From contig JAMDCK010000022.1 of the NCBI GenBank assembly GCA_023488435.1, positions 23,551 through 87,550 on the forward strand: DNA of 64,000 nt, written 5' to 3'. The notes beneath the pieces are model-generated. The model saw only the letters and a list, made by a program, of their open reading frames with translations, ran no database searches and had not been told where the DNA came from. Below are positions 10,538 through 64,000 of the stretch, one piece after another. The DNA is from Actinomycetota bacterium (lineage in GTDB: Bacteria > Actinomycetota > Coriobacteriia > Anaerosomatales > UBA912). A program made the position numbers and the translations under genes. Positions within the stretch are counted from its first letter, which is position 1, and each line of letters opens with the position of its first letter.

Positions 10538-10549
10538 GGATTGGACTTC

Positions 10550-37227: not shown

Positions 37228-38349
37228 TCAGATCCCGATCATTGCCCGAAGGCGCAACAACACCAGCGCCAACATCTCTCGAACCGAAGGAGAGATCATG
37301 ACGACAGCAGTGATGACTGCGATTCCAGCACCCGCCAACAACAGAAGGTCGCTCGTTCCGACCGTCGACCGATATAGCTTGTTCACGCCCTTGGCGTCGA
37401 CCAGACGATGACCGACCTTCACCCTCACGATGAATGTGGAAGCCATCCCTTTACGCCCTTTGTCCAGGTAATCGACAAGGTTGGCGTGGGTTCCGACCGC
37501 CACGATCAACTCAGAGCCCGATTCGAATGCCAGCAGTAGCGCGAGATCCTCGCTGGTTGCCGAGAGCGGCCACGGCTGAGCGGTCAGGCCCAACCCTTGG
37601 ATGCGCTCCATCCCGGGAGCCCTGCCGTCCTCGTAGGCATGAACGATCAGCTTGGCTCCGGATCGCAAAGCCTCATCTGTCACCGAGTCCATATCGCCGA
37701 CGATAACATCAGGCTTAAAACCGGCCTCTAGGATCGCATCGGCACCGCCATCGACACCGATCAGTACGGGCCTGATCTCCCGAATGTAAGACTTCAGGGC
37801 ATTGAGGTCCTTCTTGTAGTCGTAACCCCTGACTACGACCAATGCATGTTTGCCGTGAAAGTCGATGCCGGTTTCCGGAACAGCAATCGCTCCGGTCAAC
37901 AGCTCCTTCTCGTTCTCAAGGTAGTCCAAGGTGTTCCTGACGAAACTATCGAGTTGCGCTCCCATCTCACTGTCGGCTTCAAGCATTGAGGACTCGATGG
38001 ATTCAACTGTCAGCCACTGTCCAGAAGCTATGAGTTCGCCTTCAAGGAACACATCGTGCCCGATGATGTTTATGGCCGCTCCATCTTGGATGCGCTCGAA
38101 GACGGCGGGCCCGACGTCATCAAGGATGTGAACCCCACCTCTGGCCAAAAGGATCGGGCCGGTGTTCGGATATGCGCCCGAAATGGAGCGAGAGGCATTG
38201 ATGACGCACTCAACGCCGACTCCGAGAAGACCTTCTGCGCTGACCTTGTCGATGTCCTGGTGGTCGATGATGGCGATATCATCGCTGCTCAAGCGCTTGA
38301 CGAGGTCCTTGGTGCGACTATCGATCCTAGCGGTTCCCGACAAGCGCAT
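37228..38349 (-). CDS. steA: SteA family protein (Rv1697-like, cell-division associated), intact copy
   Basis: Start refined to the ATG at 38349 (MRLSGTARIDSRTKDLVKRLSSDDIAIIDHQDID...). Has a C-terminal TM helix. The track ORF 37228-38562 is an upstream extension. Confidence 0.8.
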   Translation of the reverse strand: MRLSGTARIDSRTKDLVKRLSSDDIAIIDHQDIDKVSAEGLLGVGVECVINASRSISGAYPNTGPILLARGGVHILDDVGPAVFERIQDGAAINIIGHDVFLEGELIASGQWLTVESIESSMLEADSEMGAQLDSFVRNTLDYLENEKELLTGAIAVPETGIDFHGKHALVVVRGYDYKKDLNALKSYIREIRPVLIGVDGGADAILEAGFKPDVIVGDMDSVTDEALRSGAKLIVHAYEDGRAPGMERIQGLGLTAQPWPLSATSEDLALLLAFESGSELIVAVGTHANLVDYLDKGRKGMASTFIVRVKVGHRLVDAKGVNKLYRSTVGTSDLLLLAGAGIAVITAVVMISPSVREMLALVLLRLRAMIGI

Positions 38350-39482
38350 CCTTGCGACCCTCCGTCCTGGATCGCTTTGCACTAGCGAGCAGCTCGCTCG
38401 CGTGTGCGAGTCCGGTCTCGCTGGAACCCCCCGAAAGCATCCTCGCCACTTCGGCGATTCGGGCTTCATCGGCGACGTGATCGACCTGCGTGCGCACTCC
38501 GTCAGAGTCGACAGACTTGGTGACAACCAGATGCCGGTCAGCGAATGCCGCCACCTGGGCAAGGTGCGTGACGACCAAAACCTGATGCTTTTCGGCCAAC
38601 AGGCTCAAGCGTCGGCCGATTGCGGTGGCCGTGGCGCCTCCGATTCCGGCATCAACCTCGTCAAAGACGAGGTCGATGCCGGTTTCCGGAACAGCAATCG
38701 CTCCGGTCAACAGCTCCTTCTCGTTCTCAAGGTAGTCCAAGGTGTTCCTGACGAAACTATCGAGTTGCGCTCCCATCTCACTGTCGGCTTCAAGCATTGA
38801 GGACTCGATGGATTCAACTGTCAGCCACTGTCCAGAAGCTATGAGTTCGCCTTCAAGGAACACATCGTGCCCGATGATGTTTATGGCCGCTCCATCTTGG
38901 ATGCGCTCGAAGACGGCGGGCCCGACGTCATCAAGGATGTGAACCCCACCTCTGGCCAAAAGGATCGGGCCGGTGTTCGGATATGCGCCCGAAATGGAGC
39001 GAGAGGCATTGATGACGCACTCAACGCCGACTCCGAGAAGACCTTCTGCGCTGACCTTGTCGATGTCCTGGTGGTCGATGATGGCGATATCATCGCTGCT
39101 CAAGCGCTTGACGAGGTCCTTGGTGCGACTATCGATCCTAGCGGTTCCCGACAAGCGCATCCTTGCGACCCTCCGTCCTGGATCGCTTTGCACTAGCGAG
39201 CAGCTCGCTCGCGTGTGCGAGTCCGGTCTCGCTGGAACCCCCCGAAAGCATCCTCGCCACTTCGGCGATTCGGGCTTCATCGGCGACGTGATCGACCTGC
39301 GTGCGCACTCCGTCAGAGTCGACAGACTTGGTGACAACCAGATGCCGGTCAGCGAATGCCGCCACCTGGGCAAGGTGCGTGACGACCAAAACCTGATGCT
39401 TTTCGGCCAACAGGCTCAAGCGTCGGCCGATTGCGGTGGCCGTGGCGCCTCCGATTCCGGCATCAACCTCGTCAAAGACGAG
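37861..39482. repeat. Perfect head-to-tail tandem duplication, 2 x 811 bp (37861-38671 and 38672-39482)
   Basis: The two units read identically base for base. Identical track ORFs are offset by exactly 811 (37931-38131/38742-38942, 38056-38385/38867-39196, 38070-38282/38881-39093). The flanks diverge at once (37860 a vs 38671 g; 38672 g vs 39483 a). Confidence 0.95.
38327..39160 (-). CDS. Chimeric ORF created by the 811-bp duplication: SteA residues 1-163 fused in frame to RecN residues 441-554
   Basis: 277 codons. The junction at 38672/38671 reads ...AIAVPETGID|LVFDEVDAGIGG... and falls exactly on codon boundaries of both parents. It carries the native steA translation start region (copy at 39160). 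Expression is unknown. Confidence 0.6.
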   Translation of the reverse strand: MRLSGTARIDSRTKDLVKRLSSDDIAIIDHQDIDKVSAEGLLGVGVECVINASRSISGAYPNTGPILLARGGVHILDDVGPAVFERIQDGAAINIIGHDVFLEGELIASGQWLTVESIESSMLEADSEMGAQLDSFVRNTLDYLENEKELLTGAIAVPETGIDLVFDEVDAGIGGATATAIGRRLSLLAEKHQVLVVTHLAQVAAFADRHLVVTKSVDSDGVRTQVDHVADEARIAEVARMLSGGSSETGLAHASELLASAKRSRTEGRKDALVGNR

Positions 39483-49362: not shown

Positions 49363-50615
49363 TCAAAGCTCGAGGAGCTCACGCGGAGAACCGCTCAACA
49401 GGGTGTAACCCTCGGACTCCACAACAGCGAGGTCCTCTATTCTAACACCGCCAAGCCCCGGGATGTAGATACCAGGCTCCACAGTCACCACACTTCCCGT
49501 GAGCACAGCCGCCCTGCCGCGAGGGCTCACTGTAGGCAACTCATGAACCTCCAGCCCAACACCATGCCCTAGCCCGTGGCCGAAGCGTCCGGCAAACCCC
49601 GCCGATTCGATGACTTCGCGAGCCTTCGCGTCGATATCCTGGCCGCGCAGTCCACCTCGAAGCGCCTGCAAGCCGGCAGCGTGCGCCTCCAGTACGACCG
49701 CGTGAAGCTCCCTCTGCTGTTCCGACGCCTTGCCGATGACGACTGTCCGGGTCATGTCGGCGCAATAGCCATCGACTTTCGCTCCAAGGTCGATCGTCAC
49801 GAGATCCCCAAGCTCAAGCACCTTTTCCGAGGCGATCGCATGCGGCCTCGAGGAGTTCAGCCCGCTCGCCACGATGGGCGGGAATGCGAGGCCGTCGGCG
49901 CCCTCAGAGCGCATGAACGCCTCAATCTCCCAGGCGATCTCCCGCTCGGTAACTCCAACGCCCAAACGAGTGAGAATATGCTCGAAAGCGCGATCCGTGA
50001 GCTTGGCCGCTTGCTGGATTCGATCTAGCTCCTCAGGCTCCTTGACCTGACGCTGCTCCTCGATCCACTGGTCGATCATCTCAACATTGCCGTCGAAGCA
50101 CTCAGAGATGAAACGAAATCGTCCGTACGGCATCGAGGATTCGAGCGCGAGCGAACCGACTCCTGAACCTGCAAGTACGTCACACAATTCGACGTAAAGG
50201 GACTGGTCGACTGCGCGGACTGACCAGTCCGTGCCCACAGCGGCCTCAACGGCCGCCTCGGTGTACCGAGAGTCTGTGAATGCCTGGGCAATTGACTCTG
50301 TCACCAGACACGCAACGTTCGCGTGACTGAACCTGCAAGTACGTCACACAATTCGACGTAAAGGGACTGGTCGACTGCGCGGACTGACCAGTCCGTGCCC
50401 ACAGCGGCCTCAACGGCCGCCTCGGTGTACCGAGAGTCTGTGAATGCCTGGGCAATTGACTCTGTCACCAGACACGCAACGTTCGCGTGATCGTCGAAAA
50501 CACCCTCAAAGCCGGTGATGTATCGGATGTTGACCACATCAGTGACCACGATCGCTGGAATCCCAGAATCCGCAAGCCGCTTTCGGAGCAGTCCCAGCCT
50601 GCGGCCAGGGTTCAT
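49363..50615 (-). pseudogene. Xaa-Pro aminopeptidase/dipeptidase (M24B, PepP/PepQ type) disrupted by an internal 164-bp tandem duplication
   Basis: The 5' ORF runs from the ATG at 50615 ([26 protein letters not shown]...) and ends out of frame at 50301. The 3' ORF 49363-50304 carries the whole M24 catalytic domain (DLGAKVDGYCADMTR, HGLGHGVGLEVHE, TVEPGIY). Deleting one repeat unit restores a single 362-codon gene. Confidence 0.85.
50163..50490. repeat. Perfect head-to-tail tandem duplication, 2 x 164 bp (50163-50326 and 50327-50490)
   Basis: The units were compared base by base and are identical. The flanks differ at once (50162 c vs 50326 a; 50327 c vs 50491 t). 164 is not a multiple of 3. 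Confidence 0.97.
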
Positions 50616-51079: not shown

Positions 51080-52189
51080 TCACATGGACTTGTGGCGTTC
51101 GATATCGGCAGCCAGAAACGCATTCAGCTCGTCGGCAATAGTTCTCTCGTCTACCGGGACGACTACCCACGATCCGGGTTCGGTCGCAAAGACGAAGCGT
51201 ATCTCACCAGCGCGCACCTTCTTGTCGGACCGCATGGCATAGCGTACCGCATCGACGTCCAAATCGGCCAGAGCTGGACTCAGACCAAGTGCGTCGAGCA
51301 GGGCGACTTGCCTAGTGCCGAAGTGTTCGGAGGCCATGTCGAGCCGAACAGAGAGCCCTGCTGCGAACCTGAGTCCGGCTGCGACGGCAAGACCATGCGG
51401 AATGACGCCGTAACCAGCAACCTTCTCGATCGCGTGTGCCAAAGTGTGTCCAAGATTGAGGGATTCCCTGGGGCCAGCCTCGCGTTCGTCGGCTTGCACG
51501 ACCGAAGCCTTGGAGCGCACACAGTCGGCCACAACTTCCGTAAGAACCGCAGTCTCACCTGCAAGCAGACTCTTCGAGTCGCGCTCCAGCCGGGCCAGAA
51601 GCGATTCACCATCCAGGAATGCGGTCTTGACCACCTCCGCAAGTCCGCTCTTGAGCTCACTTTCCGGCAGCGTTGCGAGGAGCGCCGTGTCCGCGATGAC
51701 CGCCCGTGGCTGGACGAACACTCCGGCTAGGTTCTTCCCGGCAGCCAGATCCACCCCCGTCTTCCCGCCCACCGAAGAATCCACCTGGGACAGGAGTGTT
51801 GTGGGAATCTGGTAGTAGTCGATGCCTCGCATATAGACCCCGGCCGTGAAGCCTGCGATGTCGCCCACTACTCCGCCGCCGAAAGCGATGATCGCTTCAT
51901 CTCGCTCGACGCGTTCATGGGCCAGCTGCTCCAGTAGCCGACCGGCTAACTGCCAGTTCTTGGATTGCTCGCCGGGAGGTACCTGCATGACTGTGAACGA
52001 TATTCCTGCGCCTGCAAGCGACTTTTCGAGTACGGACCCGTGAATTTCGTATGCGGTCCGGTCGGCGATTATCGCGACTCTTGGTCGACGAAGAAGGTCA
52101 GCAAGGACGGGTCCCGTGGCGCCGAGCGCACCAGGGCCAACAAGAACCTCGTAGCTACCCCCTGAGCACTGGACTGGTACCACAATCAT
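51080..52189 (-). CDS. aroB: 3-dehydroquinate synthase
   Basis: GGGVVGD nucleotide motif, metal ligands in LNLGHTLAHAIE, 369 aa. Confidence 0.93.
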   Translation of the reverse strand: MIVVPVQCSGGSYEVLVGPGALGATGPVLADLLRRPRVAIIADRTAYEIHGSVLEKSLAGAGISFTVMQVPPGEQSKNWQLAGRLLEQLAHERVERDEAIIAFGGGVVGDIAGFTAGVYMRGIDYYQIPTTLLSQVDSSVGGKTGVDLAAGKNLAGVFVQPRAVIADTALLATLPESELKSGLAEVVKTAFLDGESLLARLERDSKSLLAGETAVLTEVVADCVRSKASVVQADEREAGPRESLNLGHTLAHAIEKVAGYGVIPHGLAVAAGLRFAAGLSVRLDMASEHFGTRQVALLDALGLSPALADLDVDAVRYAMRSDKKVRAGEIRFVFATEPGSWVVVPVDERTIADELNAFLAADIERHKSM

Positions 52190-52707: not shown

Positions 52708-53858
52708 GACTCGAGCCTCTGCAGGTAAGCGTGCTGTGCAACCTGGATGTCCATCAAGTTGTTTCCGCCGAAGGCTTCGATGTGCGCAGCAGCCAACACA
52801 AGGCACACCTCGGCTTCCGCAACCACAGCTGCTGCAGGGACCGCACACACGTCGGATCGCTCCTTGGAGGCGTCCACGATTGCGTGAGAGTCTATGTCGA
52901 CGGACGCTAGTGGCGTCATCAGTGTCGGAATCGGTTTCATCGCTGCGCGAACGACCAGCGGCTGTCCGTTGGTCATGCCACCTTCGAGACCGCCAGCGTG
53001 ATTGGTCAGCCGATGATAGCCCCGAGTAGCATTGTGATAGATCTCGTCGTGTACTTGGGATCCGACCTGCCCCGCCGAAGCGAACCCAGTGCCGAACTCG
53101 ACGCCCTTGATCGCCGGTATGGATATCACCGCTGCAGCCAATCGTGCGTCGAGACGCTGATCGGCCTGTGCGTACCCACCGAGTCCGGGCACAAGGCCCG
53201 TCGCAGTCACATAGAAGGTCCCGCCGAGGCTCTCCCCTGCGGCTTGAGCCTGATCGATAGCCACACGCATCCTGCCTGATGCCTCAGCATCCGGACAGCG
53301 CAGGTCACTACCCTCAACCACCTTGTGGTCAATAAGCTCGGGATTGAGAGGGGCTTGGATCGACACTTCGCCGACAGAAGCAACAAAGGAGTGAACCTCG
53401 ACTCCAAGTTGGCGGAGGAAGGCGCGTGCCACCGCGCCGGCTGCCACCCTAGCGGCAGTCTCTCTGGCACTTGCACGCTCAAGGATGTCGCGCACATCAC
53501 GGGTCCCGGTCTTCATGATGCCAGCTAGGTCTGCATGGCCGGGACGAGGAGCCTTCACTCGGGCTTCTTCGCGAAGATGGCCAGGTGCGGCCTGCATCAC
53601 ATCGGTCCAGTTGTCCCAGTCGCGATTGGCCACAGTCAGGGCGATAGGCGACCCAATAGTACTGCCAAGCCGCACCCCCGCCGAGATAAGCGCCCTGTCA
53701 CGCTCGATACGCATACGCCCGCCACGGCCGTAGCCGACTTGGCGGCGTGCTAGATCATGGTCGATCATTGCCTGATCGATGGGAATGCCAGCAGGGACGT
53801 CACTAATGATGGCAGTCAAGGCTCGTCCGTGGGACTCGCCGGCGGTGACATAGCGCAT
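52701..53858 (-). CDS. aroC: Chorismate synthase, intact
   Basis: [12 protein letters not shown]-terminus, GRSSARETA-like motif (ERASARETAARVAAG), 385 aa. Confidence 0.97.
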   Translation of the reverse strand: MRYVTAGESHGRALTAIISDVPAGIPIDQAMIDHDLARRQVGYGRGGRMRIERDRALISAGVRLGSTIGSPIALTVANRDWDNWTDVMQAAPGHLREEARVKAPRPGHADLAGIMKTGTRDVRDILERASARETAARVAAGAVARAFLRQLGVEVHSFVASVGEVSIQAPLNPELIDHKVVEGSDLRCPDAEASGRMRVAIDQAQAAGESLGGTFYVTATGLVPGLGGYAQADQRLDARLAAAVISIPAIKGVEFGTGFASAGQVGSQVHDEIYHNATRGYHRLTNHAGGLEGGMTNGQPLVVRAAMKPIPTLMTPLASVDIDSHAIVDASKERSDVCAVPAAAVVAEAEVCLVLAAAHIEAFGGNNLMDIQVAQHAYLQRLESW

Positions 53859-55065
53859 GGGGATTCTTCCTCCGAGCTTGGTTGGCTACTTGCCCACTGG
53901 AGTGATGACCCCTGGCTCATTCGGGTCAACTACCGCACCAACCCCGACTGCAAGTCTGATGGAGGCGTCACCATAGGCGAATGTAGCAGATCGATCGGCG
54001 ATACTCCGAACCATCCAGGGAGTACCAGCGATGGACTCTCCTGCGGCCAAGGTGTGGGTTACGCCGTTCAAGTCAACGACCACGTTTGGAACCCCATCCT
54101 CGACAACGATGTTGACGAGAGTCAGTCGATCGACCCCCGCAGTCCCCGTAGCTACGGCACCCGGGGTGACAGCTGCTGACGGTCGAATAACGGGCTTGAA
54201 GATATCCCTGAATGTGAATAGCTCCGACGAAGGTATCGCTGCAGGCTCAACGATCTCTTCGGGCACAGGCGTCGGTGACGTCTCGGCTGGCTGTTCCACA
54301 ATGACTTCGATCTCATCGAGGGCCTGCGCCTGCATCACATCGGTCCAGTTGTCCCAGTCGCGATTGGCCACAGTCAGGGCGATAGGCGACCCAATAGTAC
54401 TGCCAAGCCGCACCCCCGCCGAGATAAGCGCCCTGTCACGCTCGATACGCATACGCCCGCCACGGCCGTAGCCGACTTGGCGGCGTGCTAGATCATGGTC
54501 GATCATTGCCTGATCGATGGGAATGCCAGCAGGGACGTCACTAATGATGGCAGTCAAGGCTCGTCCGTGGGACTCGCCGGCGGTGACATAGCGCATGGGG
54601 ATTCTTCCTCCGAGCTTGGTTGGCTACTTGCCCACTGGAGTGATGACCCCTGGCTCATTCGGGTCAACTACCGCACCAACCCCGACTGCAAGTCTGATGG
54701 AGGCGTCACCATAGGCGAATGTAGCAGATCGATCGGCGATACTCCGAACCATCCAGGGAGTACCAGCGATGGACTCTCCTGCGGCCAAGGTGTGGGTTAC
54801 GCCGTTCAAGTCAACGACCACGTTTGGAACCCCATCCTCGACAACGATGTTGACGAGAGTCAGTCGATCGACCCCCGCAGTCCCCGTAGCTACGGCACCC
54901 GGGGTGACAGCTGCTGACGGTCGAATAACGGGCTTGAAGATATCCCTGAATGTGAATAGCTCCGACGAAGGTATCGCTGCAGGCTCAACGATCTCTTCGG
55001 GCACAGGCGTCGGTGACGTCTCGGCTGGCTGTTCCACAATGACTTCGATCTCATCGAGGGCCTGC
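53590..55065. repeat. Perfect head-to-tail tandem duplication, 2 x 738 bp (53590-54327 and 54328-55065)
   Basis: Identical track ORFs are offset by exactly 738 (53757-54179/54495-54917). The junction and flanks were read directly (53589 g vs 54327 c; 54328 g vs 55066 t). Confidence 0.95.
53886..54596 (-). CDS. Chimeric ORF created by the 738-bp duplication: AroC residues 1-90 fused in frame to residues 63-208 of the pilus-cluster protein
   Basis: 236 codons. The junction reads ...NWTDVMQA|[12 protein letters not shown].... It keeps the aroC ribosome-binding region but lacks the TM helix of the pilus-cluster parent. Expression is unknown. Confidence 0.6.
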
Positions 55066-55250
55066 TGGGCACGAGTCTCAAGAAAGTCCAGAACGAAGAA
55101 TGTGGCAGCTCCGGCCACAACAAAGAACAGAAGGACTGCTCCGATTATCAGGATCAGACTCTTGCGCGCGAAGCCTTTAGTAGCCGAAGCGTCCTGAGTC
55201 GCGCCGCTTGCTGAGTCCACCTTCATCTTATCTGTCATCATGTCGCCCAC
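54624..55250 (-). CDS. Bitopic pilus-cluster protein (PilP-like position), intact
   Basis: 208 aa with one TM (SLILIIGAVLLFFVVAGAATFFVL), a Pro/Glu linker and a beta-rich C-terminal domain. Directly follows pilM-pilN-pilO. The call is positional only. Confidence 0.55.
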   Translation of the reverse strand: MGDMMTDKMKVDSASGATQDASATKGFARKSLILIIGAVLLFFVVAGAATFFVLDFLETRAQQALDEIEVIVEQPAETSPTPVPEEIVEPAAIPSSELFTFRDIFKPVIRPSAAVTPGAVATGTAGVDRLTLVNIVVEDGVPNVVVDLNGVTHTLAAGESIAGTPWMVRSIADRSATFAYGDASIRLAVGVGAVVDPNEPGVITPVGK

Positions 55251-55270
55251 GTAAAGTCATCCTTCATCTC

Positions 55271-55894
55271 TCACTGGGCCGGTACCTCCGCAGGAGGAGC
55301 TTCAGCGGCTGGCGGGGTTGGTGCTAGGGAGTAGATCTCTAACTGCATGGTTACGTCAACTTCTTGCTCGGGAGCCGGGGCGCCCGGGGTAGGAGTAGCC
55401 TCAGTAGCCGGCTCAGCGTACGGTGTTACATCAAAGCTGACGATACGAACTTGCCTGACCACCCGTCTTAGGCGCTGGGTGAGGTCAATGATATCGGCCC
55501 ATTCGCCCCTGATCGTCACCGAGATACCGATGGTGCTAAATCCAAGGCCCCCATCAACGGGCAGGGTTGGTGAAAGCATGGAGAACTCCAAGCCAGATTC
55601 ATTGATGACATCTTGCAGTTCAATAATGAATGCAGGTAGTTCAGGGCTGGCAGGCAGCTGGTTTGAGAGACGTAGAAGCTGTGTCTCTGTCTGTGCAGAC
55701 TGTGCCTTGATTTCCTGTCGCTGCTCAAGCAGGAGTCGTGCAGCATCTGCCTCACCCTGCGCAGCTTGAACTTGGGATTCGATTTCTGCCAACCGAGTGA
55801 ACTGAGGTACGACGAGAAGTGCCACAATCAACACGGCGACAAGGACCATACCAACAACGATGGCTAGGAGCTTCTGTTTGGGCGTGAGTTTCAT
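55271..55894 (-). CDS. pilO: Type IV pilus assembly protein PilO
   Basis: N-terminal TM, coiled coil (EIESQVQAAQGEADAARLLLEQRQ), C-terminal ferredoxin-like region. Follows pilN. Confidence 0.75.
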   Translation of the reverse strand: MKLTPKQKLLAIVVGMVLVAVLIVALLVVPQFTRLAEIESQVQAAQGEADAARLLLEQRQEIKAQSAQTETQLLRLSNQLPASPELPAFIIELQDVINESGLEFSMLSPTLPVDGGLGFSTIGISVTIRGEWADIIDLTQRLRRVVRQVRIVSFDVTPYAEPATEATPTPGAPAPEQEVDVTMQLEIYSLAPTPPAAEAPPAEVPAQ

Positions 55895-55911
55895 CTCAGT
55901 GAAGCCTCATC

Positions 55912-56556
55912 TCACGGAGTCGCTGTGGTCGAGGGGTCAGGGGCATCGGTCGATATCGCTTCCATCTGATCAGGACTCATGACCTCACAGGTGACCTGGA
56001 ATCTAAGTACCGGCTGGCCAGGAGCATCTGCGACCCCGGGCAACTCTGTCTTCTGGGAGCTCGTCAGCCAGACGCTGCTGAGCATCTCGATGTTCGCCAA
56101 ACGAGCAAGCGTCCTTGCGACCGCCTTGTGGCCCATGTCGGGTACGTCAGTTGCAGAGTCAACTGCAATCGCACTTAGGGTCAAGCCTGTGTCCTGTGCA
56201 GCCTGGAGGCTGTCCAGCCATACATCCGTAGGCAAAACCAATGAAAGCTCGTTGAGAAGCCTGCCCCAGTCGATACGTTGCTTGACCGCCTCCTGCATGA
56301 CAATTTGACGTTGAGCCAGATCGGCCTCTTTGTCTTCGAATATCTGCAATGCGCTAGCCTGTGCGCTAAGAGTAGCCGCCAGGTCTTTGTGTGACTGGAG
56401 TTCGGCGGTGCGCTGAGATAGCATCCACTGCGTGAACCCGAAGACTGCGAACAGCACCAAGTAAACAACAAGTGCGGCTAGCGCTGCGATCTTGATCGCA
56501 GTCTCGAAATTTCTCTTTTCGCTGATCTCACGAGGGAGTAGGTTGATGCGAACCAT
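55912..56556 (-). CDS. pilN: Type IV pilus assembly protein PilN
   Basis: MVRINLLPREI N-terminus (PilM-binding INLLP motif), one TM, then coiled coil. Confidence 0.85.
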   Translation of the reverse strand: MVRINLLPREISEKRNFETAIKIAALAALVVYLVLFAVFGFTQWMLSQRTAELQSHKDLAATLSAQASALQIFEDKEADLAQRQIVMQEAVKQRIDWGRLLNELSLVLPTDVWLDSLQAAQDTGLTLSAIAVDSATDVPDMGHKAVARTLARLANIEMLSSVWLTSSQKTELPGVADAPGQPVLRFQVTCEVMSPDQMEAISTDAPDPSTTATP

Positions 56557-57672
56557 CTACCCTGCACCCCCCATTGACAGGCCGACTGCTGGCGCAATTC
56601 CCATTCTGTCGCTCATGACCACGGGCTCCAGCGCTGCGGGAACCTGGAGAAACTGCATAGGGTCAACGACACGCACTTCTGCCTGGAGACCCTTCGAAAG
56701 ATAATCAGTCAGATGGGTGAGTTGTGACCCACTTCCGGTGACATATATCTTAGAAATCGACCTGACCTGTGTTGCCTGCGTCAGGTAGTAGTCCAACGAC
56801 CGACGAACCTCCGCGATGAACTTGTTGACTTCACGCTCCAGGGTGTCCTGAGCAACTTGTACCGCATGATCCTCCGTCACTGGTGCCCCGCCCTCGATGT
56901 CAGGGAGGCCAGCTCTCAGCTTGAGCTCCTCAGCCTCGTCGAACGTCAGATTGAGCACGTTCGAAATCGCTTGAGTGAACTGATTTCCTGCGATTGCAGA
57001 GACGCGCGTGAAGCGAGGAACGCCCTTTTCCACCACTGCTATGTTGGTCACGCCCGAAGAGATATGGATCACGCCGATCGCCTCGCCTGGCGCCTCTTCG
57101 TGCGCGGGTAAAACGCTGTCTACTGCGCCGAAGAGCGCTCTTACTAGGGCGAACGATGTTACGTCGATTCTTACAAGCCGAAGGCCGGCGGCCTCGACTG
57201 CTGAAACAGCGTTGTCGATCATGTCGCGGGCGGCGGCCACCAACAAGACCTCCATCATATGCTCATCGGTCGGGGTCATATAGTCGCCGATGATCTGGAA
57301 ATCGAGGATAGCATCCTCTACGGGGATCGGGATGTAATCCTGAGCCTGATACTGGATCGCGCCTTGAAGCTCCGCGCGCTCCATGTAGGGAAGGTCGATC
57401 AAACGTACTACAACCTTCTGATTGGATACCCCGATAGCGACGTCCTTGCCCTTGAACCCCCCGAGTCGCCAAGCATCCTTGACGGCATGGGTGACAGCCA
57501 TCTGATCGAAAATCTCCCCTTCGACAACAGCACCCAAGGGCATGCCGACCTTGCTGTAAGCAGATAGTATGAAGCCAGAGCCTGACGGCTTGACCTGTGC
57601 GATGCGTACCTGATCGGTCCCAATATCGAGACCAACCGGTATCGTCTGAGCTCCTAAGGATACGAGACCCAA
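56557..57672 (-). CDS. pilM: Type IV pilus assembly ATPase-fold protein PilM
   Basis: Actin-like fold (VGLDIGTDQVRIAQV...). TTG start with AAGGGGG upstream. Its stop abuts the pilN start. Confidence 0.9.
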   Translation of the reverse strand: MGLVSLGAQTIPVGLDIGTDQVRIAQVKPSGSGFILSAYSKVGMPLGAVVEGEIFDQMAVTHAVKDAWRLGGFKGKDVAIGVSNQKVVVRLIDLPYMERAELQGAIQYQAQDYIPIPVEDAILDFQIIGDYMTPTDEHMMEVLLVAAARDMIDNAVSAVEAAGLRLVRIDVTSFALVRALFGAVDSVLPAHEEAPGEAIGVIHISSGVTNIAVVEKGVPRFTRVSAIAGNQFTQAISNVLNLTFDEAEELKLRAGLPDIEGGAPVTEDHAVQVAQDTLEREVNKFIAEVRRSLDYYLTQATQVRSISKIYVTGSGSQLTHLTDYLSKGLQAEVRVVDPMQFLQVPAALEPVVMSDRMGIAPAVGLSMGGAG

Positions 57673-57693
57673 CGGAGGCCCCCTTCTGCCATC

Positions 57694-57714
57694 ACTGCTA
57701 CGAAACTGCTACGA
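57694..57714 (-). promoter_or_regulatory. 10-bp direct repeat (ACTGCTACGA x2, period 11) in the pilM leader
   Basis: Plus-strand copies at 57694-57703 and 57705-57714, lying between a candidate promoter and the pilM start at 57672. Confidence 0.35.
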
Positions 57715-57745
57715 CTGTTGCTGCATCAAAACAATCCTGTGAAAG

Positions 57746-57775
57746 ATTGTACCCATAGCTTGTGAATATACGCAA
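57746..57775 (-). promoter_or_regulatory. Candidate pilM promoter TTGCGT-18-TACAAT
   Basis: Minus strand has TTGCGT at 57775-57770 and GGGTACAAT with its -10 at 57751-57746. Confidence 0.35.
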
Positions 57776-57784
57776 TACCCGAGT

Positions 57785-59287
57785 TCACTGGCGGGACCAA
57801 CCACTCATGCTGACGGCATTCATGCCGTGACCCGGCATTGCTGGGGAAAGCACTTCCCCAAGATTTGGGCTGGTTCTGAGGTCCATATTGTTGTTGCCTA
57901 CAATATTCATTCCCCCGGTTATCAAAGAGCCCACGACTAGCACTTTCTTGTCGATGCTGATCGTTCCGTTGGAGAAGAAAGCCCCTGCATGAGTGGGCGG
58001 ACCGTACGGGTTCTGCTGATTGCTGTCCGTGGACGGAGACAGGTGTATGCTAGAAGGAGTAGCCAGTCCTATGACCGCTTCACTTCTGAACAACTGATGC
58101 GGTAGGCCGTCACGCACACCATCCTCAGGGCGGCCATCCATTAAGCCCCCAAGAGGAACGAAGTTTGTATTTTCGAACCTGATTTCGCCGTTCGCAACTA
58201 TTGTGCCCTGACCTTGGTAGCTCACGAGGCTGCCTACGGCGATTGTCAAGGGGCCGTCGACGAACACAGTTCCCCGCACGGTCAGCACACGATTGGTGCC
58301 ATCCCACGCAAAGTCGTCGGTAAGGCGCCCAAACGAGGGAGTCGAAGCATCTATCCGCAAGCCAGTATCCCCGTCCACATCGTTATCGCTATCGACAACT
58401 TTGTAGCGCTCAGGACTCGCCCCAGGGGCGTGTATGCCCGGATAACGGCCACTTTGGTCCCTTTCGTCGTTGGCGATCCCCCCCGCATGCCCTTGAACAT
58501 TATCCCTCGACTGTGCAGCAGCATCAGAATATGCCCTCTGGAGATAGGCCTCATCAACCCTGGGCACAATCATCCTTGGCACTGGCCGGATGACTGTTGT
58601 GCCAGCTACATCCGGAACAGTAGCCCCTTGGTCGGCATACAATATTCGAACTTGATCTCTTTGAGAATTTCCTCCGCTAGCATTGAGGGCCTTTTCCGGA
58701 TTGTTCATGATGAAGTGCCCGTTCGTTACAAAGAGCGGACCCCAGCCAAATTCTACACTTTGTCCGATCTCAGCATTCCCCCTAAGGCTGCCATGACTGT
58801 AGAATGGCCCGAACACGGTAGAGTTTCCGCCCATCTTCCCACCGGCACTCGTGACCCCTGTGCTATGTGCGATATTCATCCCATATAGATCCATGACCCA
58901 CAGACGCATGCTGATCGTCTCCTGACTCCCATCGGCTCCACGACCGACCGAAGTCAAGACATATTCGAAAGGATTGGTAGGCCTAACAGTCACAGTTGCG
59001 CTGCCCGAAACCAGTTCCTCCGCACTAAAGATCATGGGAGCAGTTGCGACGGCGGATGCCCCATGACGAAATCGCGCGACGGCAGCGTCCAGAGCGCCGT
59101 TGGCGGCCTGGAACGCCTGGGTCTCCTGCCGATTGACGCTCGCCTCGTGGATCGCCTGTCGCGACATAGCGAATCCCCCGAAAGTGACAACGGTCAGAAC
59201 CGCAATGATCCCCATCACTACCACGACTGCGTAGCCTGAGTCGGATGCGGTGCTTGTGGGTATCCCACACTTGAGTCGACGCTTCAT
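57785..59287 (-). CDS. PilX-like large pilus-associated protein (N-terminal hydrophobic helix, no Glu5)
   Basis: Start refined to the ATG at 59287 (MKRRLKCGIPTSTASDSGYAVVVVMGIIAVLTVV), with GGAGGA upstream. 500 aa, Gly/Asn/Thr-rich and probably beta-rich. Confidence 0.6.
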   Translation of the reverse strand: MKRRLKCGIPTSTASDSGYAVVVVMGIIAVLTVVTFGGFAMSRQAIHEASVNRQETQAFQAANGALDAAVARFRHGASAVATAPMIFSAEELVSGSATVTVRPTNPFEYVLTSVGRGADGSQETISMRLWVMDLYGMNIAHSTGVTSAGGKMGGNSTVFGPFYSHGSLRGNAEIGQSVEFGWGPLFVTNGHFIMNNPEKALNASGGNSQRDQVRILYADQGATVPDVAGTTVIRPVPRMIVPRVDEAYLQRAYSDAAAQSRDNVQGHAGGIANDERDQSGRYPGIHAPGASPERYKVVDSDNDVDGDTGLRIDASTPSFGRLTDDFAWDGTNRVLTVRGTVFVDGPLTIAVGSLVSYQGQGTIVANGEIRFENTNFVPLGGLMDGRPEDGVRDGLPHQLFRSEAVIGLATPSSIHLSPSTDSNQQNPYGPPTHAGAFFSNGTISIDKKVLVVGSLITGGMNIVGNNNMDLRTSPNLGEVLSPAMPGHGMNAVSMSGWSRQ

Positions 59288-59303
59288 CGCACGTCCTCCA
59301 TTG

Positions 59304-59909
59304 CTATCGGTCGCGGTTTCTAAACACGACAACCACCGAATCGGTGATGGTTCTATCATCGTTTCTCGCCTGTATCGTGACACGAACGCTACGTGCTTGC
59401 CCTCTGACTAAACCCATGTCTGTAATCGCTTGCGGTTCGGTTCCAGAAGGGTAGTATGTGAACAATGGTACTCCGTCCTGCAAGTTGGTTATTCCGGGCC
59501 CGTAAGTGTTTCGGAGTCTAGCTGGCGTTATGCGTACTCCGGCAGCAGTCATGTTGTAGGACACATGCTCGATGTAAGTTTCGCCTGCGATGGTGATGAT
59601 CCTGAAGTTATGCTGCTCAGGAATGTCATCGAGATTCTGGTCGGTTCTGACCGACAGCGAGTATGGCGTTGGAGCAGGGTTGACCTCGATTGTGGTGTTC
59701 TGAATCAGGATCTCGCTCATCCTACTCATGGGGTACGTTATGGCTCTCGCCTGATAAGTCTCTCTATCAGCCGTTCGCTGGCCGGCAGAGACAACCTGGG
59801 CGACTGTGAACGCCATGGTAAGAATCACTCCAAGCAGCGCCATGAACACCAAGAGCTCTGCCAGGGAGAACCCTGACTCCCTGTGTGACGGGATTCCGCG
59901 AAGCGTCAT
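59304..59909 (-). CDS. Minor (pseudo)pilin with class III signal peptide
   Basis: MTLRGIPSHRESG|FSLAELLVFMALLGVIL is a prepilin peptidase site with Glu5. The ATG at 59909 overlaps the upstream stop (ATGA). Confidence 0.75.
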   Translation of the reverse strand: MTLRGIPSHRESGFSLAELLVFMALLGVILTMAFTVAQVVSAGQRTADRETYQARAITYPMSRMSEILIQNTTIEVNPAPTPYSLSVRTDQNLDDIPEQHNFRIITIAGETYIEHVSYNMTAAGVRITPARLRNTYGPGITNLQDGVPLFTYYPSGTEPQAITDMGLVRGQARSVRVTIQARNDDRTITDSVVVVFRNRDR

Positions 59910-61573
59910 TGACCCCACATCTCCCAATTGATTTCAGGTGTTACCGTGGGCGGTGTCTCCCAACGAGTCCATTCGTCAACGCCGCGTGTGGTGTGGCCCC
60001 TTGCGCTATCCTGACGCGTGAACCGAACCACTGAGGATGGAATCTGCATAAGGGCGCCACCATTGGGCGTCACAGTTACCAGGCAACGGAACTCTATCCA
60101 GCCCCTTGGAGCGCCTCCGATGAGGCCAGCGAACTCTCCGTTGAGCGGTGCGGACCAGTTGTTCAGTGTGAGAGCGGCCAAGGTCGACGGCGTGATTCCA
60201 ATATTGATCCAAGCGGTCGTAGGCTGGCCATCTATGAAGTATCGGTACTGCCATCTGTAGTTAGTCACTGCAGTGGTATGAAATCCTGGAGTGTTACTGG
60301 TCAGCGAGATATTGAAAGTTGCCGCACGGTTGTTTCTCCCCCTATCGATCATCTCAACGGTTCCCGTGAACGAAGGTCTCGAAATGAAGGTTGCGCTGAC
60401 TGGGCTGGAAGTGTGAAACGGCACCGTTTGCCCTTCTGCGATGGGCCCCTGCGAAGTGACATCAATGCGATACCTGCGGAAAGCCTGCGTGCTGCCAGTC
60501 CACTGAATTGGATCATCCATATCTGGTGGCGTAACTTCCGCAGAAGAAGGTGCAAGAAAGGTGCCGTTCACCGGAGACTGCTCTGACCAACTGACACTAT
60601 ATCGAGGCACCCACCAATTCCCGTCCCTGGCTGGATCCCAGCCAAAGGTCACAGAGGTGTTGCCAGCTGTAGAGCGCACCACAGGAGTAGTTGGAGCCTC
60701 TGGCGGATTGTTATCTACAATCAGGTTCCAGTCGAAGGAAGTTACCTGACCGCGACTGTCTAGAGCTTCTGCTCTCATCATATAGAGGCCGTCTGGGAAA
60801 CGCTGGGTGCCGCCTGGGTTCAGTGCCAGGGTGTTCCACTGTCCTGAAATGGAGTCACTGGGTTCGGTTATACCCGATTTGAACAATATGCTTGCTGGAT
60901 TCACTCCTGTTGAACTGGTCAGTATCTCAATCTCATTCAATGTCACCCCGGAGCCACCGGCAACCGCTGTCATGCCCATCGGCACAGCACTTCCACGAAC
61001 GGCGCCGCCTCGTGGGGTGTTGGGTGTCAAAGTGATTGTGGCTGGATACAGCGGAGGCTCAGGAACCCCGGGGGGTCCGGTCGCATTAGGGGTTCCGGGA
61101 GGTGATCCAGTGGGCCGCAGCTCGCTGACGAAAGTGCCGGTCCTCAGAACGAAGGGCCTTCCCACCGGACCTGTCGCGCGCACCGTAACGGCCACATGCT
61201 TATAGGGGGGATACAGTGTGCTTTGGTTCTGGTCCTGAAACCAATGTGGAGTCACAGTGGCCGACATCGAGACGGTAACACCGTCAATGGTCGTCGACGC
61301 GCCCGAAGCCAGCGTATTGATTCTAGCCTGGGTGACTTCTGTGTAAGCAAGGCGTCTGACCTGCTCCAAGAAGGAACTGGCTGCGTTTACTGCGACAGCA
61401 TCCGCTTTGGCAGTGACGCTAAGCATGGTGGAAGTGGAGACCAGCCCAAAAAGAGCTGTCGCCACAAAAAACATGATCGCAGAGGCAACCAGAATCTCAA
61501 CAAGCGTAAACCCAGCGTCATTGTGGGCTAGCCTATGGGATTCTCTGTTTCCCGACACTGTTGTCTTCCGCAT
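59906..61573 (-). CDS. Giant minor pilin (555 aa) with class III signal peptide and FN3-like module
   Basis: Prepilin site ...HNDAG|FTLVEILVASAIMFFVA. The internal segment PPEAPTTPVVRSTAGNTSVTFGWDPARDG...YSVSW looks like a fibronectin-III repeat. Confidence 0.75.
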   Translation of the reverse strand: MRKTTVSGNRESHRLAHNDAGFTLVEILVASAIMFFVATALFGLVSTSTMLSVTAKADAVAVNAASSFLEQVRRLAYTEVTQARINTLASGASTTIDGVTVSMSATVTPHWFQDQNQSTLYPPYKHVAVTVRATGPVGRPFVLRTGTFVSELRPTGSPPGTPNATGPPGVPEPPLYPATITLTPNTPRGGAVRGSAVPMGMTAVAGGSGVTLNEIEILTSSTGVNPASILFKSGITEPSDSISGQWNTLALNPGGTQRFPDGLYMMRAEALDSRGQVTSFDWNLIVDNNPPEAPTTPVVRSTAGNTSVTFGWDPARDGNWWVPRYSVSWSEQSPVNGTFLAPSSAEVTPPDMDDPIQWTGSTQAFRRYRIDVTSQGPIAEGQTVPFHTSSPVSATFISRPSFTGTVEMIDRGRNNRAATFNISLTSNTPGFHTTAVTNYRWQYRYFIDGQPTTAWINIGITPSTLAALTLNNWSAPLNGEFAGLIGGAPRGWIEFRCLVTVTPNGGALMQIPSSVVRFTRQDSARGHTTRGVDEWTRWETPPTVTPEINWEMWGQ

Positions 61574-61631
61574 AAGTCCTTCACTCCCATCGATGAGAGT
61601 TTGGTAGGCAACATGAATTCAGCACACTTCT

Positions 61632-61645
61632 ATTATACCTATCGG
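61632..61645 (-). promoter_or_regulatory. Candidate promoter of minor-pilin operon: CCGATAGG-TATAAT
   Basis: Perfect TATAAT (minus 61637-61632), immediately preceded by CCGATAGG. About 60 nt upstream of the 61573 start. Confidence 0.4.
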
Positions 61646-61681
61646 TTCAAGAGTCCCCGAACTTGACACCCTCAGTCAGGC

Positions 61682-62512
61682 CTAACTGAGACCAATCAAG
61701 CGAAGGTACCAATCCCAAATCTGGGCACCGAACAGGGCAATCAAAACAGCTGCGCCCGCAAGGAACGGACCGAAGGGCACTTTGAGCCGGGAGTCCACCC
61801 CTCGACGGTAGGCACGACATGCGACAAAGCCGGCCCCCAGGACGCTACCAACAAAAATCACGGCGACCGTGTAGAGGCCCAGGAACGGCCCGATGGCCGC
61901 AAGTAGCTTCACGTCACCCATGCCAAGCCCGGCCTGACCTCGCATACGTTCGTAAGCTGCAGCTATCCCCCAACTCAACCCGGCTGCCGTGACGGAGCCT
62001 AAAAGCGCTGCGGCAATGGGTGAGGCTACTGTCGCGGCTGGAGTCAGTGGTGCAAGATGAAGACCGGTGAGCTGGGACGCTGCGGCCGCTGCCATCCCTA
62101 CGGCGCCCAGAACGGCTACGATTGGATTGGGGAGGCGCATAGTGTCGATGTCAATGAAGGTGAGGACGAGCAGCATCCAGAAGAAGAAGCCCGCGATCAC
62201 GGCTTGCGGTCCGACACCGAAAGCCAACACCGCGAGGAGCCACAGTATGCCAGATGCAATCTCGACCCCCGGATACCGCCATGATATCGGTCCGCCACAG
62301 TCACGGCACTTCGCCCTCAGGGCAAGCCAAGAGACGACGGGGATGTTGTCCCGCCAGCGGATGGTGGTGCCGCAGTGCGGGCATCGCGACCTAGGTGCTA
62401 CGAATGATCGACCAGCCGGAACCCGCGATATCACGACGTTAGCGAAGCTGCCTAGGGCCAGACCAAGGATGAAGACAATAGTCGCTGGAATAGTGAATTC
62501 AAGTCCGGACAA
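61682..62512 (-). CDS. pilD: Prepilin peptidase / N-methyltransferase (A24 family)
   Basis: N-terminal Cys motif CPHC...CRDC, polytopic, conserved Asp boxes (FIDIDTMRLP, GMGDVKLL). Confidence 0.92.
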   Translation of the reverse strand: MSGLEFTIPATIVFILGLALGSFANVVISRVPAGRSFVAPRSRCPHCGTTIRWRDNIPVVSWLALRAKCRDCGGPISWRYPGVEIASGILWLLAVLAFGVGPQAVIAGFFFWMLLVLTFIDIDTMRLPNPIVAVLGAVGMAAAAASQLTGLHLAPLTPAATVASPIAAALLGSVTAAGLSWGIAAAYERMRGQAGLGMGDVKLLAAIGPFLGLYTVAVIFVGSVLGAGFVACRAYRRGVDSRLKVPFGPFLAGAAVLIALFGAQIWDWYLRLIGLS

Positions 62513-62584
62513 GTTCTACTCCTTGCAGGCTGGCGATCTCTCACTGAATCTGGAATGAGGCTGGTGCTTGAATTCTCGAAGCTC

Positions 62585-62626
62585 AAAAAACATTTCAGAG
62601 GCCGGTGCTGAAGGCACCGGCCTCTG
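62585..62626 (-). terminator. Rho-independent terminator downstream of pilA
   Basis: Perfect 13-bp stem (62596-62608 / 62614-62626) with a 5-nt loop. On the minus strand it is followed by AAATGTTTTTT. Confidence 0.75.
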
Positions 62627-62652
62627 TTGTCTCATCTGATGCTGTCAGAGCT

Positions 62653-63006
62653 TTACTGGAATCGTCCGTGGTTGGCACCAGTGGAAGTGTCGGGGCAAAT
62701 AGTCTCACCATTTGTGAGGACGTAGGGAACGTTATTCGTTGGGCAGAGTGGAGCCTGAGCGATGAACCGCGGCACTACTGCACTCATCGTGTCCACTGTC
62801 GAAATATCCCCGCCAGCATCGGCCACGAACTGCTGGGCGGCACCCTCGATAGTGCGCTGATTGGCGTGACATGTACGCCTTTCAGCTGTGGCGCGCGCAG
62901 CATTGAAGACTGGTATTGCGATAGCGACTAGTATACCAATAATAAGGATAACGACCATGAGCTCGACTAGGGTGAAACCCTCGTCCTTCCTGCGGAACAT
63001 CTTCAT
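62653..63006 (-). CDS. pilA: Major type IV pilin
   Basis: MKMFRRKDEG|FTLVELMVVILIIGILVAIAIP is a canonical class III signal with Glu5. 117 aa with C-terminal Cys pairs. Strong SD GGAAGGAG. Confidence 0.92.
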   Translation of the reverse strand: MKMFRRKDEGFTLVELMVVILIIGILVAIAIPVFNAARATAERRTCHANQRTIEGAAQQFVADAGGDISTVDTMSAVVPRFIAQAPLCPTNNVPYVLTNGETICPDTSTGANHGRFQ

Positions 63007-63052
63007 CGATGTCTCCTTCCCTTAGGTCACGCAGTCGTCTGACTGCCTTTAC

Positions 63053-63083
63053 ATTGTACCCTATCGGCATCTTTTGCTATCAA
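63053..63083 (-). promoter_or_regulatory. Candidate pilA promoter TTGATA-19-TACAAT with CCGATAGGG element
   Basis: Minus strand has TTGATA at 63083-63078 and CCGATAGGGTACAAT at 63067-63053. About 47 nt upstream of the pilA ATG. Confidence 0.4.
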
Positions 63084-63119
63084 CATTAGGGAAAACCAAT
63101 AAATCAGGAAAGTTCTTGT

Positions 63120-64000
63120 TCACTGCACCAACGTGATGACCTGAAACATCGGCATATACAGGGCAACCACCATGGAGCCTACCACTCCGCCAAGAGATGC
63201 CATCATCAGAGGCTCGATCAGCGAGGTGAGTGAATCGACCTGAGCTGCGACCTCCTCATCATAGAAGTCAGCGATCTTGTTGAGCATGGCATCCAGCGCA
63301 CCGGTCTCCTCGCCGACCGCGATCATCTGCACTAGCATCGACGGGAAGACCTTCGATTCTGACAGCGGCTTAGCTATGGCTTCCCCCTCCTTGATGGCAG
63401 AGCGAGCCTTTCTCACCTCCCTCGAAACCACCTCGTTGCCTGCGGTGTCCGCCACGATGTCCAGCGCAGACAAGATGGGCACACCAGCGGACACAAGAGT
63501 TCCGAAGGTTCGAGTGAATCGCGCAAGAGCAACTTTCCTGGTTAGCGGACCGAACACCGGAGCCTTGAGAACGAATGAATCCCAAATGAAGCGGCCTGAC
63601 GTGGTCCCTTTCCAAAACTTGAAGCTGAAATAGGCGACAAAAAGCGCAATCGCCGTGATCACGCCCCCAATGCCCGCTACGAAATTCGAAATGTCCACAA
63701 GCACCTGTGTCATGAACGGAAGTTCCCCGCCCATACTCGCGAACATCTGCTCAAAAGTGGGTACGACGAAGACCATCATCGCCACCAGGATGATCAGCAC
63801 CAAGGCCGCCATCGCAATCGGGTAGGTCATGGCAGACTTGACGCGGCCTTTGAGCGCCTGCTCGCTCTCGAAGTGATCGGCCAGCCTGACGAGGACCTCA
63901 TCGAGTACACCGCCTGTCTCACCGGCCCGTACCATGTTCACGAAGATAGGTGGGAAAGTCTTGGGGTGTCGGCCCAGGGACTCAGAGAGTGACTGGCCTG
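63120..64000 (-). CDS. pilC: Type IV pilus platform protein PilC (GspF family), C-terminal part; 5' end beyond window
   Basis: GspF-domain sequence (AMTYPIAMAALVLIILVAMMVFVVPTF...GEETGALDAML). The frame stays open to the right edge. Confidence 0.9.
   Translation of the reverse strand, partial: GQSLSESLGRHPKTFPPIFVNMVRAGETGGVLDEVLVRLADHFESEQALKGRVKSAMTYPIAMAALVLIILVAMMVFVVPTFEQMFASMGGELPFMTQVLVDISNFVAGIGGVITAIALFVAYFSFKFWKGTTSGRFIWDSFVLKAPVFGPLTRKVALARFTRTFGTLVSAGVPILSALDIVADTAGNEVVSREVRKARSAIKEGEAIAKPLSESKVFPSMLVQMIAVGEETGALDAMLNKIADFYDEEVAAQVDSLTSLIEPLMMASLGGVVGSMVVALYMPMFQVITLVQ

Follow-up and report, generated by a model that had tools for sequence, protein, structure and literature searches.

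Does a tandem repeat that leaves two neighboring genes intact and sets a hybrid reading frame between them mark the birth of a gene, a passing rearrangement in one bacterial population, or a flaw in the way in which a genome sequence was put together? The question is raised by a locus at the boundary between a pilus (pil) cluster and aroC in a stretch of 64,000 nucleotides, referred to here as the window, which forms part of a 112,873-bp MAG contig in GenBank that derives from an uncultured actinobacterium of the Coriobacteriia clade. A preliminary description of the window had reported a perfect duplication of 738 bp across this boundary, an in-frame chimera of chorismate synthase (AroC) with a PilP-like protein of the pilus cluster, and a second case of the same architecture elsewhere in the window, and had implied that the arrangement is biologically significant. 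The structural side of that description has stood up well to the analysis presented here, and the significance that it implied has not.

The 738-bp repeat and the reading frame at its joint

When the window, which is without Ns, was compared with itself, positions 53590..54327 (copy 1) and 54328..55065 (copy 2), treated as features without strand, were found to be identical at 738 of 738 bp, with 0 mismatches and with the two copies directly adjacent in head-to-tail orientation; the limits of the repeat are exact and are those originally given. The match cannot be extended by even one base on either side, so that the unit is present in exactly 2.0 copies with 0 bp of microhomology at the junction. 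A chance origin is impossible for an exact repeat of 738 bp, and the lack of any substitution between the copies implies a young event, if the event is real. The novel joint, at 54327|54328, reads …GAGGGCCTGC|GCCTGCATCA…, and its immediate surroundings, gagggcctgc|gcctgcatca, are as first reported. The hexamer GCCTGC occurs at both ends of the unit, for which the a priori probability is ~3e-4, and it was considered as the site of a microhomology join; the geometry is wrong for such a join, which would give a period of 732 bp, and we have treated the hexamer as a coincidence. Slippage mediated by microhomology was rejected as well, since no repeat extends past 2.0 copies at this duplication or at the two others that the window contains.

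Three reading frames follow one another on the minus strand across the repeat, in the order that had been described: an intact gene for p208, a bitopic pilus-cluster protein of 208 aa (55250->54624; MCL5887337.1), a junction ORF of 236 aa with the composition AroC(1-90)::p208(63-208) (54596->53886; MCL5887336.1), and an intact aroC that encodes a chorismate synthase of 385 aa (53858->52701; MCL5887335.1). Read on this strand, copy 1 consists of codons 63-208 of p208, a 27-nt spacer that carries the aroC ribosome-binding site, and codons 1-89 of aroC plus 2 nt. The DNA joint splits a codon as GC|G and Ala90 of AroC is retained, so that the peptide across the joint is ...NWTDVMQA|QALDEIEV..., which resumes with Gln63 of p208. 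Residues 91-236 of the junction ORF are identical to residues 63-208 of p208, and the in-frame fusion that had been claimed, with its junction VMQA|QALDEIEV, is thereby confirmed. Because p208 and aroC are read in the same frame and 738 is a multiple of 3, a joint that falls in frame represents a 1-in-3 chance. The aroC ribosome-binding region had also been placed inside the unit, and a Shine-Dalgarno sequence, GGAGG, is indeed found 10 nt before both ATG codons, at 53873-53869 for the original (aroC) and at 54611-54607 for the copy (junction ORF), with identical 27-nt spacers before the two starts.

Both parents of the chimera are intact, as the preliminary description emphasized, but this feature is automatic for any tandem duplication that ends in two neighboring genes and does not by itself define a particular architecture. 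What the junction ORF retains of its parents is limited on both sides. For the AroC family, represented by PF01264 and TIGR00033, the curated cut-off is 212.2 bits; the intact 385-aa AroC scores 378.7 bits against TIGR00033 and is a full-length chorismate synthase, whereas the junction ORF scores 95.3 bits and falls below the cut-off. The latter matches chorismate synthases in the PDB over its residues 1-92 only, of chains that are ~400 residues long, and is nonetheless named 'MAG: chorismate synthase [Actinobacteria bacterium]' in its GenBank entry. No transmembrane (TM) segment was found in the junction ORF, in which the highest 19-residue Kyte-Doolittle mean is 1.32, as compared to 2.77 in p208, and the loss of the membrane anchor noted earlier is thus borne out. 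In a product that has no such segment, the PilP-like domain would remain in the cytoplasm, on the wrong side of the membrane.

The pilus-cluster parent has a TM helix at residues ~31-54, with the 19-residue Kyte-Doolittle mean of 2.77 at residues 31-50, and the basic residues ahead of this segment (...KGFARKS) lead us to read its probable topology as N-in. The layout of p208 comprises the N-in tail, the TM helix, a Pro/Thr linker, an FTFRDIF motif and a beta domain at residues 128-206; in an alignment of 14 p208 homologues the FTFRDIF motif is invariant and the C-terminal domain is conserved. No Pfam family matched p208, and its score of 16.4 bits (E = 0.014, residues 113-178) against TIGR03021 (pilP_fam) is below the cut-off of 34.65 bits. 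The AlphaFold model of the protein has a pLDDT of >90 over the beta domain, and its best PDB matches in Foldseek are PilP (3jc8 chain P, 2y4y, 2lc4, 2ivw) and the HR domain of GspC/PulC (3oss_C, 6hcg_e), with probabilities of 0.97-1.00, a target TM-score of 0.77 and an rmsd of 2.1 A for 3oss_C, and E-values that are modest, ranging from 6e-3 to 0.2. The designation "PilP-like" therefore holds at the level of the fold, for which PilP and GspC-HR are the top structures, and is sub-threshold at the level of sequence; the predicted model supports the view of p208 as a bitopic protein that has the fold of the PilP/GspC HR domain.

With PilP and the GspC HR domain p208 shares a small beta-sandwich fold and a gene position after pilM-pilN-pilO, and with GspC it shares anchoring in the membrane through an N-terminal helix. 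Canonical PilP differs in that it is a diderm lipoprotein that docks onto the secretin PilQ, whereas p208 is bitopic; the functional hallmarks of PilP are missing from p208, which has a TM helix in place of a lipobox, and no secretin appears among the Pfam matches of the cluster genes. The Coriobacteriia, to which the host belongs, are taken as monoderm. No secretin gene is seen in the pil cluster in which p208 is encoded.

Companion duplications and comparison with relatives

In a k-mer census of the window, the only repeats of at least 25 bp were three exact tandem duplications, of 811, 164 and 738 bp. The 811-bp duplication (37861..39482, without strand) consists of two copies that meet bluntly at 38671|38672, and it extends across the 3' end of recN and the 5' part of steA. 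Its product is a 277-aa SteA(1-163)::RecN(441-554) ORF on the minus strand (38327..39160; MCL5887319.1), with the joint peptide ...PETGIDLVFDEVD..., and this is the second case to which the preliminary description had correctly drawn attention. The 164-bp duplication (50163..50490, without strand), also blunt and in two copies, lies inside an aminopeptidase P (M24) gene, with its joint at 50326|50327; it shifts the reading frame, with the result that the gene is represented here by proteins of 313 + 104 aa (MCL5887330.1, MCL5887331.1) versus a single protein of 362 aa in all other assemblies. All three duplications are found within 17 kb, and each consists of 2.0 copies with a blunt joint and 0 bp of microhomology. 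The two inter-genic duplications are both in frame (two of two) and the third, of 164 bp, is out of frame. Were such events evenly spread, the probability that all three would fall in the 64-kb window is ~1e-4.

The same 112,873-bp contig encodes MCL5887319.1, MCL5887330.1, MCL5887331.1, MCL5887335.1, MCL5887336.1 and MCL5887337.1, as well as MCL5887345.1, which is the pilin allele of the window. Among ~15 billion proteins, the products of all three duplications were each located on 1 contig, and the parent proteins on 12-28 contigs. The presence of these products in GenBank on one contig indicates that the duplications belong to the public deposit and were not added afterwards, and the possibility that the window carries a planted or synthetic change is ruled out on the same grounds.

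For comparison within the same species we used ~30 public loci, retrieved through exact look-ups of AroC, RecN, ProC, pilin and p208, which originate from the NCBI MAGs GCA_021847205.1 and GCA_027358295.1 and from Logan assemblies of >10 sequencing runs. The DNA of these loci is 99.9-100% identical to that of the window, and the species is nearly clonal. The 738-bp duplication is absent from all ~30 loci, every one of which has a single-copy PilO-p208-AroC-AroK-AroB-AroQ order, an intact 362-aa aminopeptidase, and RecN-SteA. Over positions 32327-54327 of the window, GCA_021847205.1 is 100.000% identical save for the three extra copies, and the loci designated L001 and L066 are 100.000% identical save for the same three insertions; on the right flank of the repeat (55066-64000), the Logan contig L073 shows 0 mismatches and no duplication. 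In a sister MAG from a neighboring GenBank accession series, p208 and AroC carry consecutive accessions and the aminopeptidase is intact. Once the three second copies are removed, the remaining 62,287 bp of the window align in a single piece to every same-species locus, and the three duplications are the only structural differences between the window and its relatives.

Neither the GTDB representative genomes (596 Gb) nor the JGI metagenomes contain a 41-mer across the junction, and a 41-mer internal to the unit is likewise absent from the JGI metagenomes. Contig breaks at the limits of the duplications would be predicted to leave edge-truncated proteins, and 0 of 8 such proteins are on record, which constitutes a weak negative. 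In other samples the contigs of the short-read graphs run uninterrupted through the limits of the unit; since frequent junction reads would break graph contigs at exactly these points, the unbroken contigs have been counted toward an artefact. Contig breaks at strain-variable sites found no support as a cause of unmerged overlaps, as SNPs do not coincide with the limits of the units (the nearest, at 50507, is 17 bp away), and a mosaic of strains that switches at the joint was set aside as too weakly founded; a perfect match to both sides of the joint is found in no public contig, L073 having 1 SNP on the left and L004 having 3 SNPs on the right.

Outside the species, the nearest genomes are uncultured MAGs of the Coriobacteriia clade, with AroC identities of 92% for UBA912 and of 62-71% for Anaerosomatales and others. 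In ~45 related species pilM-pilN-pilO-p208 lies immediately upstream of aroC and is invariably single-copy, and the 738-bp duplication is absent from all of these species with the same gene order. The idea that the pil/aroC boundary is a hotspot of recurrent duplication was rejected on the evidence of these single copies. Self-comparison of 80 comparison loci, amounting to 1.32 Mb, detected no 100%-identical tandem duplications of at least 100 bp; the few repeats that it did detect are diverged, with identities of 84-98%. The comparison with related genomes that had been proposed at the outset has thus gone against the duplication, and the biological significance implied for it is not upheld: the repeat is confined to one deposited MAG contig, is absent elsewhere, and has two perfect duplications for company.

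Origin of the duplications

We infer that the 738-bp duplication is probably an artefact of assembly or curation, i.e., a "false chimeric gain". An artefact is indicated because the duplication occurs in a single assembly of a species that is nearly clonal, because three exact, two-copy, blunt events occur within 17 kb and are the only structural differences from relatives, and because one of the three breaks an aminopeptidase P gene that is intact in all of the same-species assemblies that were examined. As a cluster, the three duplications fit an assembly artefact far better than they fit three independent or selected events. Several marks of false duplication are seen here, namely occurrence in one assembly only, collinearity of relatives once the extra copy is subtracted, and several like events in the same assembly; one mark of a genuine duplication, a junction in independent data from the same species, was found neither in other assemblies nor in the two collection-wide scans.

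Several routes to such an artefact can be envisaged. Overlapping contig ends may have been abutted instead of merged, in which case the shared stretch would have been written twice. Alternatively, the stretch may have been inserted a second time during local "break-fix" work, gap closing or polishing, or a small number of chimeric or minority junction reads may have opened a loop in the graph that was then followed into the consensus. Annotation would next have turned the junction ORF into a gene under the name "chorismate synthase", and a false gain of a chimeric gene would have been the outcome. False duplications in assemblies that give rise to chimeric gene models have been documented (Genome Biol 2022, 23:205, PMC9516828). 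The cases described there have in common with the present one that a stretch is doubled in tandem in one assembly only, that annotation converts it into a fused extra gene model or a broken one, and that read depth and junction support serve as the deciding tests. They differ in that they concern diploid vertebrate assemblies and mostly involve unmerged haplotypes, with copies that are non-identical, whereas the duplications of the window consist of identical copies of 164-811 bp, without gaps, in a prokaryotic MAG.

Other considerations count against an artefact. GenBank processing let the deposited sequence through, and both parent genes are intact, so that a real event would have next to no effect on fitness and might last for some time. 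In some assemblers, a repeat enters the output twice only where junction reads exist, which would require at least a sub-population, or molecules in the library, that carry the joint. Furthermore, microhomology is common yet not required in bacterial tandem duplications (PMC11111574), and the blunt joint is therefore no bar to a natural origin.

The foremost alternative, to which we attach a minor though appreciable probability, is that the 738-bp duplication is real and very recent, specific to a strain or sub-population, neutral to slightly costly, and unstable. It would have arisen through an illegitimate, blunt, RecA-independent join of aroC codon 90 to p208 codon 62/63, between sister chromosomes or during replication; the fusion would be translated from the copied aroC ribosome-binding site into a cytoplasmic, anchorless and probably unstable protein that has no function, and the repeat would eventually be lost by homologous recombination. 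The zero divergence of the copies is what a young event would leave behind, and the intact state of parents, ribosome-binding sites and spacers, together with a product that is without a TM segment and holds only residues 1-92 of an enzyme fold of ~400 residues, agrees with such an origin, as do the presence of the sequence in a public deposit and the fact that tandem duplications free of microhomology are possible (PMC11111574). The duplication resembles spontaneous bacterial tandem duplications in that these are also arranged head to tail, keep both flanking genes, create one hybrid ORF at the joint, start at zero divergence and are expected to be unstable. They differ in that their join points are typically short homologies or repeated elements, as compared to 0 bp at 3/3 joints here, and spontaneous rates would not predict three small duplications in 17 kb, for which no selection scenario is at hand. 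A real origin would in fact need three independent perfect events in 17 kb, each of them frequent in one population and yet all absent from ~30 assemblies, and one of the three inactivates the conserved aminopeptidase P gene. The work of Roth and Andersson on bacterial duplications is, in addition, said to show that tandem repeats are unstable in recombination-proficient cells, which also weighs against a real origin.

The clustering of the three events, if they are real, would call for a single error-prone replication episode, either break-induced or at a restart fork, and we regard it as quite improbable that all three are real and arose in this way. The template would have been switched backwards three times (by 811, 164 and 738 bp) in 17 kb, which would generate the pattern DUP-normal-DUP-normal-DUP with blunt joints and, as by-products, two newborn in-frame hybrid genes in a natural population of an uncultured actinobacterium. 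Scarcely credible, finally, is the proposal that the chimera is a selected new gene, with its PilP-like domain retargeted to the cytoplasm or regulated via the AroC N-terminus in an architecture that recurs in SteA::RecN: the junction ORF has a good ribosome-binding site and two of two inter-genic duplications are in frame, but a joint falls in frame with p = 1/3 for each event and 1/9 for both while the third event is out of frame, the sequence shows no substitutions and no spread beyond one contig, no homologue with the AroC::p208 domain order occurs among the p208 matches besides the protein of the window itself, the AroC portion amounts to one quarter of an enzyme that has a single domain, the PilP-like domain would be misplaced with respect to the membrane, and the preservation of both parents is inherent to tandem duplication.

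Significance for protein databases and for the Coriobacteriia

If the duplication were real, it would show a gene at the moment of its birth, through tandem duplication, in a wild population, with a hybrid ORF that is zero substitutions old and whose parents are still intact, and, together with its two neighbors, it might provide evidence of clustered template-switching in bacteria. With an assembly or curation artefact as the probable origin, the main value of the locus is cautionary. A public MAG with three doubled stretches has contributed two chimeric proteins (MCL5887336.1 and MCL5887319.1) and one split protein (MCL5887330.1/MCL5887331.1), and entries of this kind pollute protein databases, where they can be mistaken for domain fusions; MCL5887336.1, archived as a "chorismate synthase", contains one quarter of the enzyme. 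The analysis has, moreover, brought a modest but genuine side result in p208 itself, a conserved, membrane-anchored, PilP/GspC-HR-like protein that is encoded after pilMNO in a clade of the Coriobacteriia.

Core gene order and the p208 family

The gene order across the window (1-64000) is that of typical actinobacterial core regions, with the blocks dcw/ftsZ-sepF-divIVA-ileS, recN-steA-mctB and nusB-efp-pepP-aroQ-aroB-aroK-aroC, and with a complete type IV pilus cluster that adjoins aroC and encodes pilB, pilT, pilC, a pilin, a prepilin peptidase, minor pilins, pilMNO and p208. Of the 11 genes called in the pilus cluster, which lies upstream of aroC, none was seen to encode a secretin. The p208 protein (208 aa; 54624-55250, minus strand) belongs to a conserved family without annotation, whose members combine an N-in transmembrane helix and a linker rich in Pro and Thr with an invariant FTFRDIF motif and a beta domain that resembles PilP/GspC-HR. 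In about 45 species of the Coriobacteriia clade its gene is always the last one after pilM-pilN-pilO, and members of the family lie just upstream of aroC in the comparison loci L011-L059.

Exact tandem duplications

The 738-bp unit at the p208/aroC boundary carries GCCTGC at both of its ends (53590-53595 and 54322-54327, and likewise in the second copy), with an a priori chance of about 3e-4. Since the hexamer both starts and closes the unit, the sequence at the joint reads GCCTGCGCCTGC. The geometry does not fit a microhomology-mediated join, for which a period of 732 bp would be expected.

Another exact tandem duplication, 2 x 811 bp with a blunt joint (37861-39482), takes in the 3' end of recN and the 5' part of steA, and gives rise to a hybrid ORF of 277 aa on the minus strand (38327..39160), SteA(1-163)::RecN(441-554), which has been deposited as MCL5887319.1 under the name "putative cytokinetic ring protein SteA". 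This duplication was not found in any of the eight same-species loci checked. Within the gene for aminopeptidase P (M24), an exact duplication of 2 x 164 bp (50163-50490) is out of frame and therefore splits the gene in two; the products in the window are 313 aa and 104 aa long (MCL5887330.1 and MCL5887331.1), and the protein has 362 aa in every other assembly.

Variation among strains and loci

The main hotspot of SNPs and indels between otherwise near-identical strains is the major pilin gene (62653-63006, minus strand), the window's allele of which occurs in only two public contigs. The 3' part of aroB (51146-51476) differs by 45-50 SNPs within ~330 bp in strains L002, L003 and L005, which are almost identical over the remaining ~20 kb, and this tract looks like a short import by recombination. 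A 14-bp indel polymorphism at ~5953, located between genes on the ftsZ side of the dcw cluster, separates the strains L074, L077, L078 and L080 from the window, L076 and L079.

In three contigs (L055, L056 and L057), whose isolate names start with "MFD", aroC aligns in two pieces (about 10450-10560) in a frameshift-like pattern that may reflect sequencing errors, a reminder that technical errors occur in the MAG gene models of this clade.
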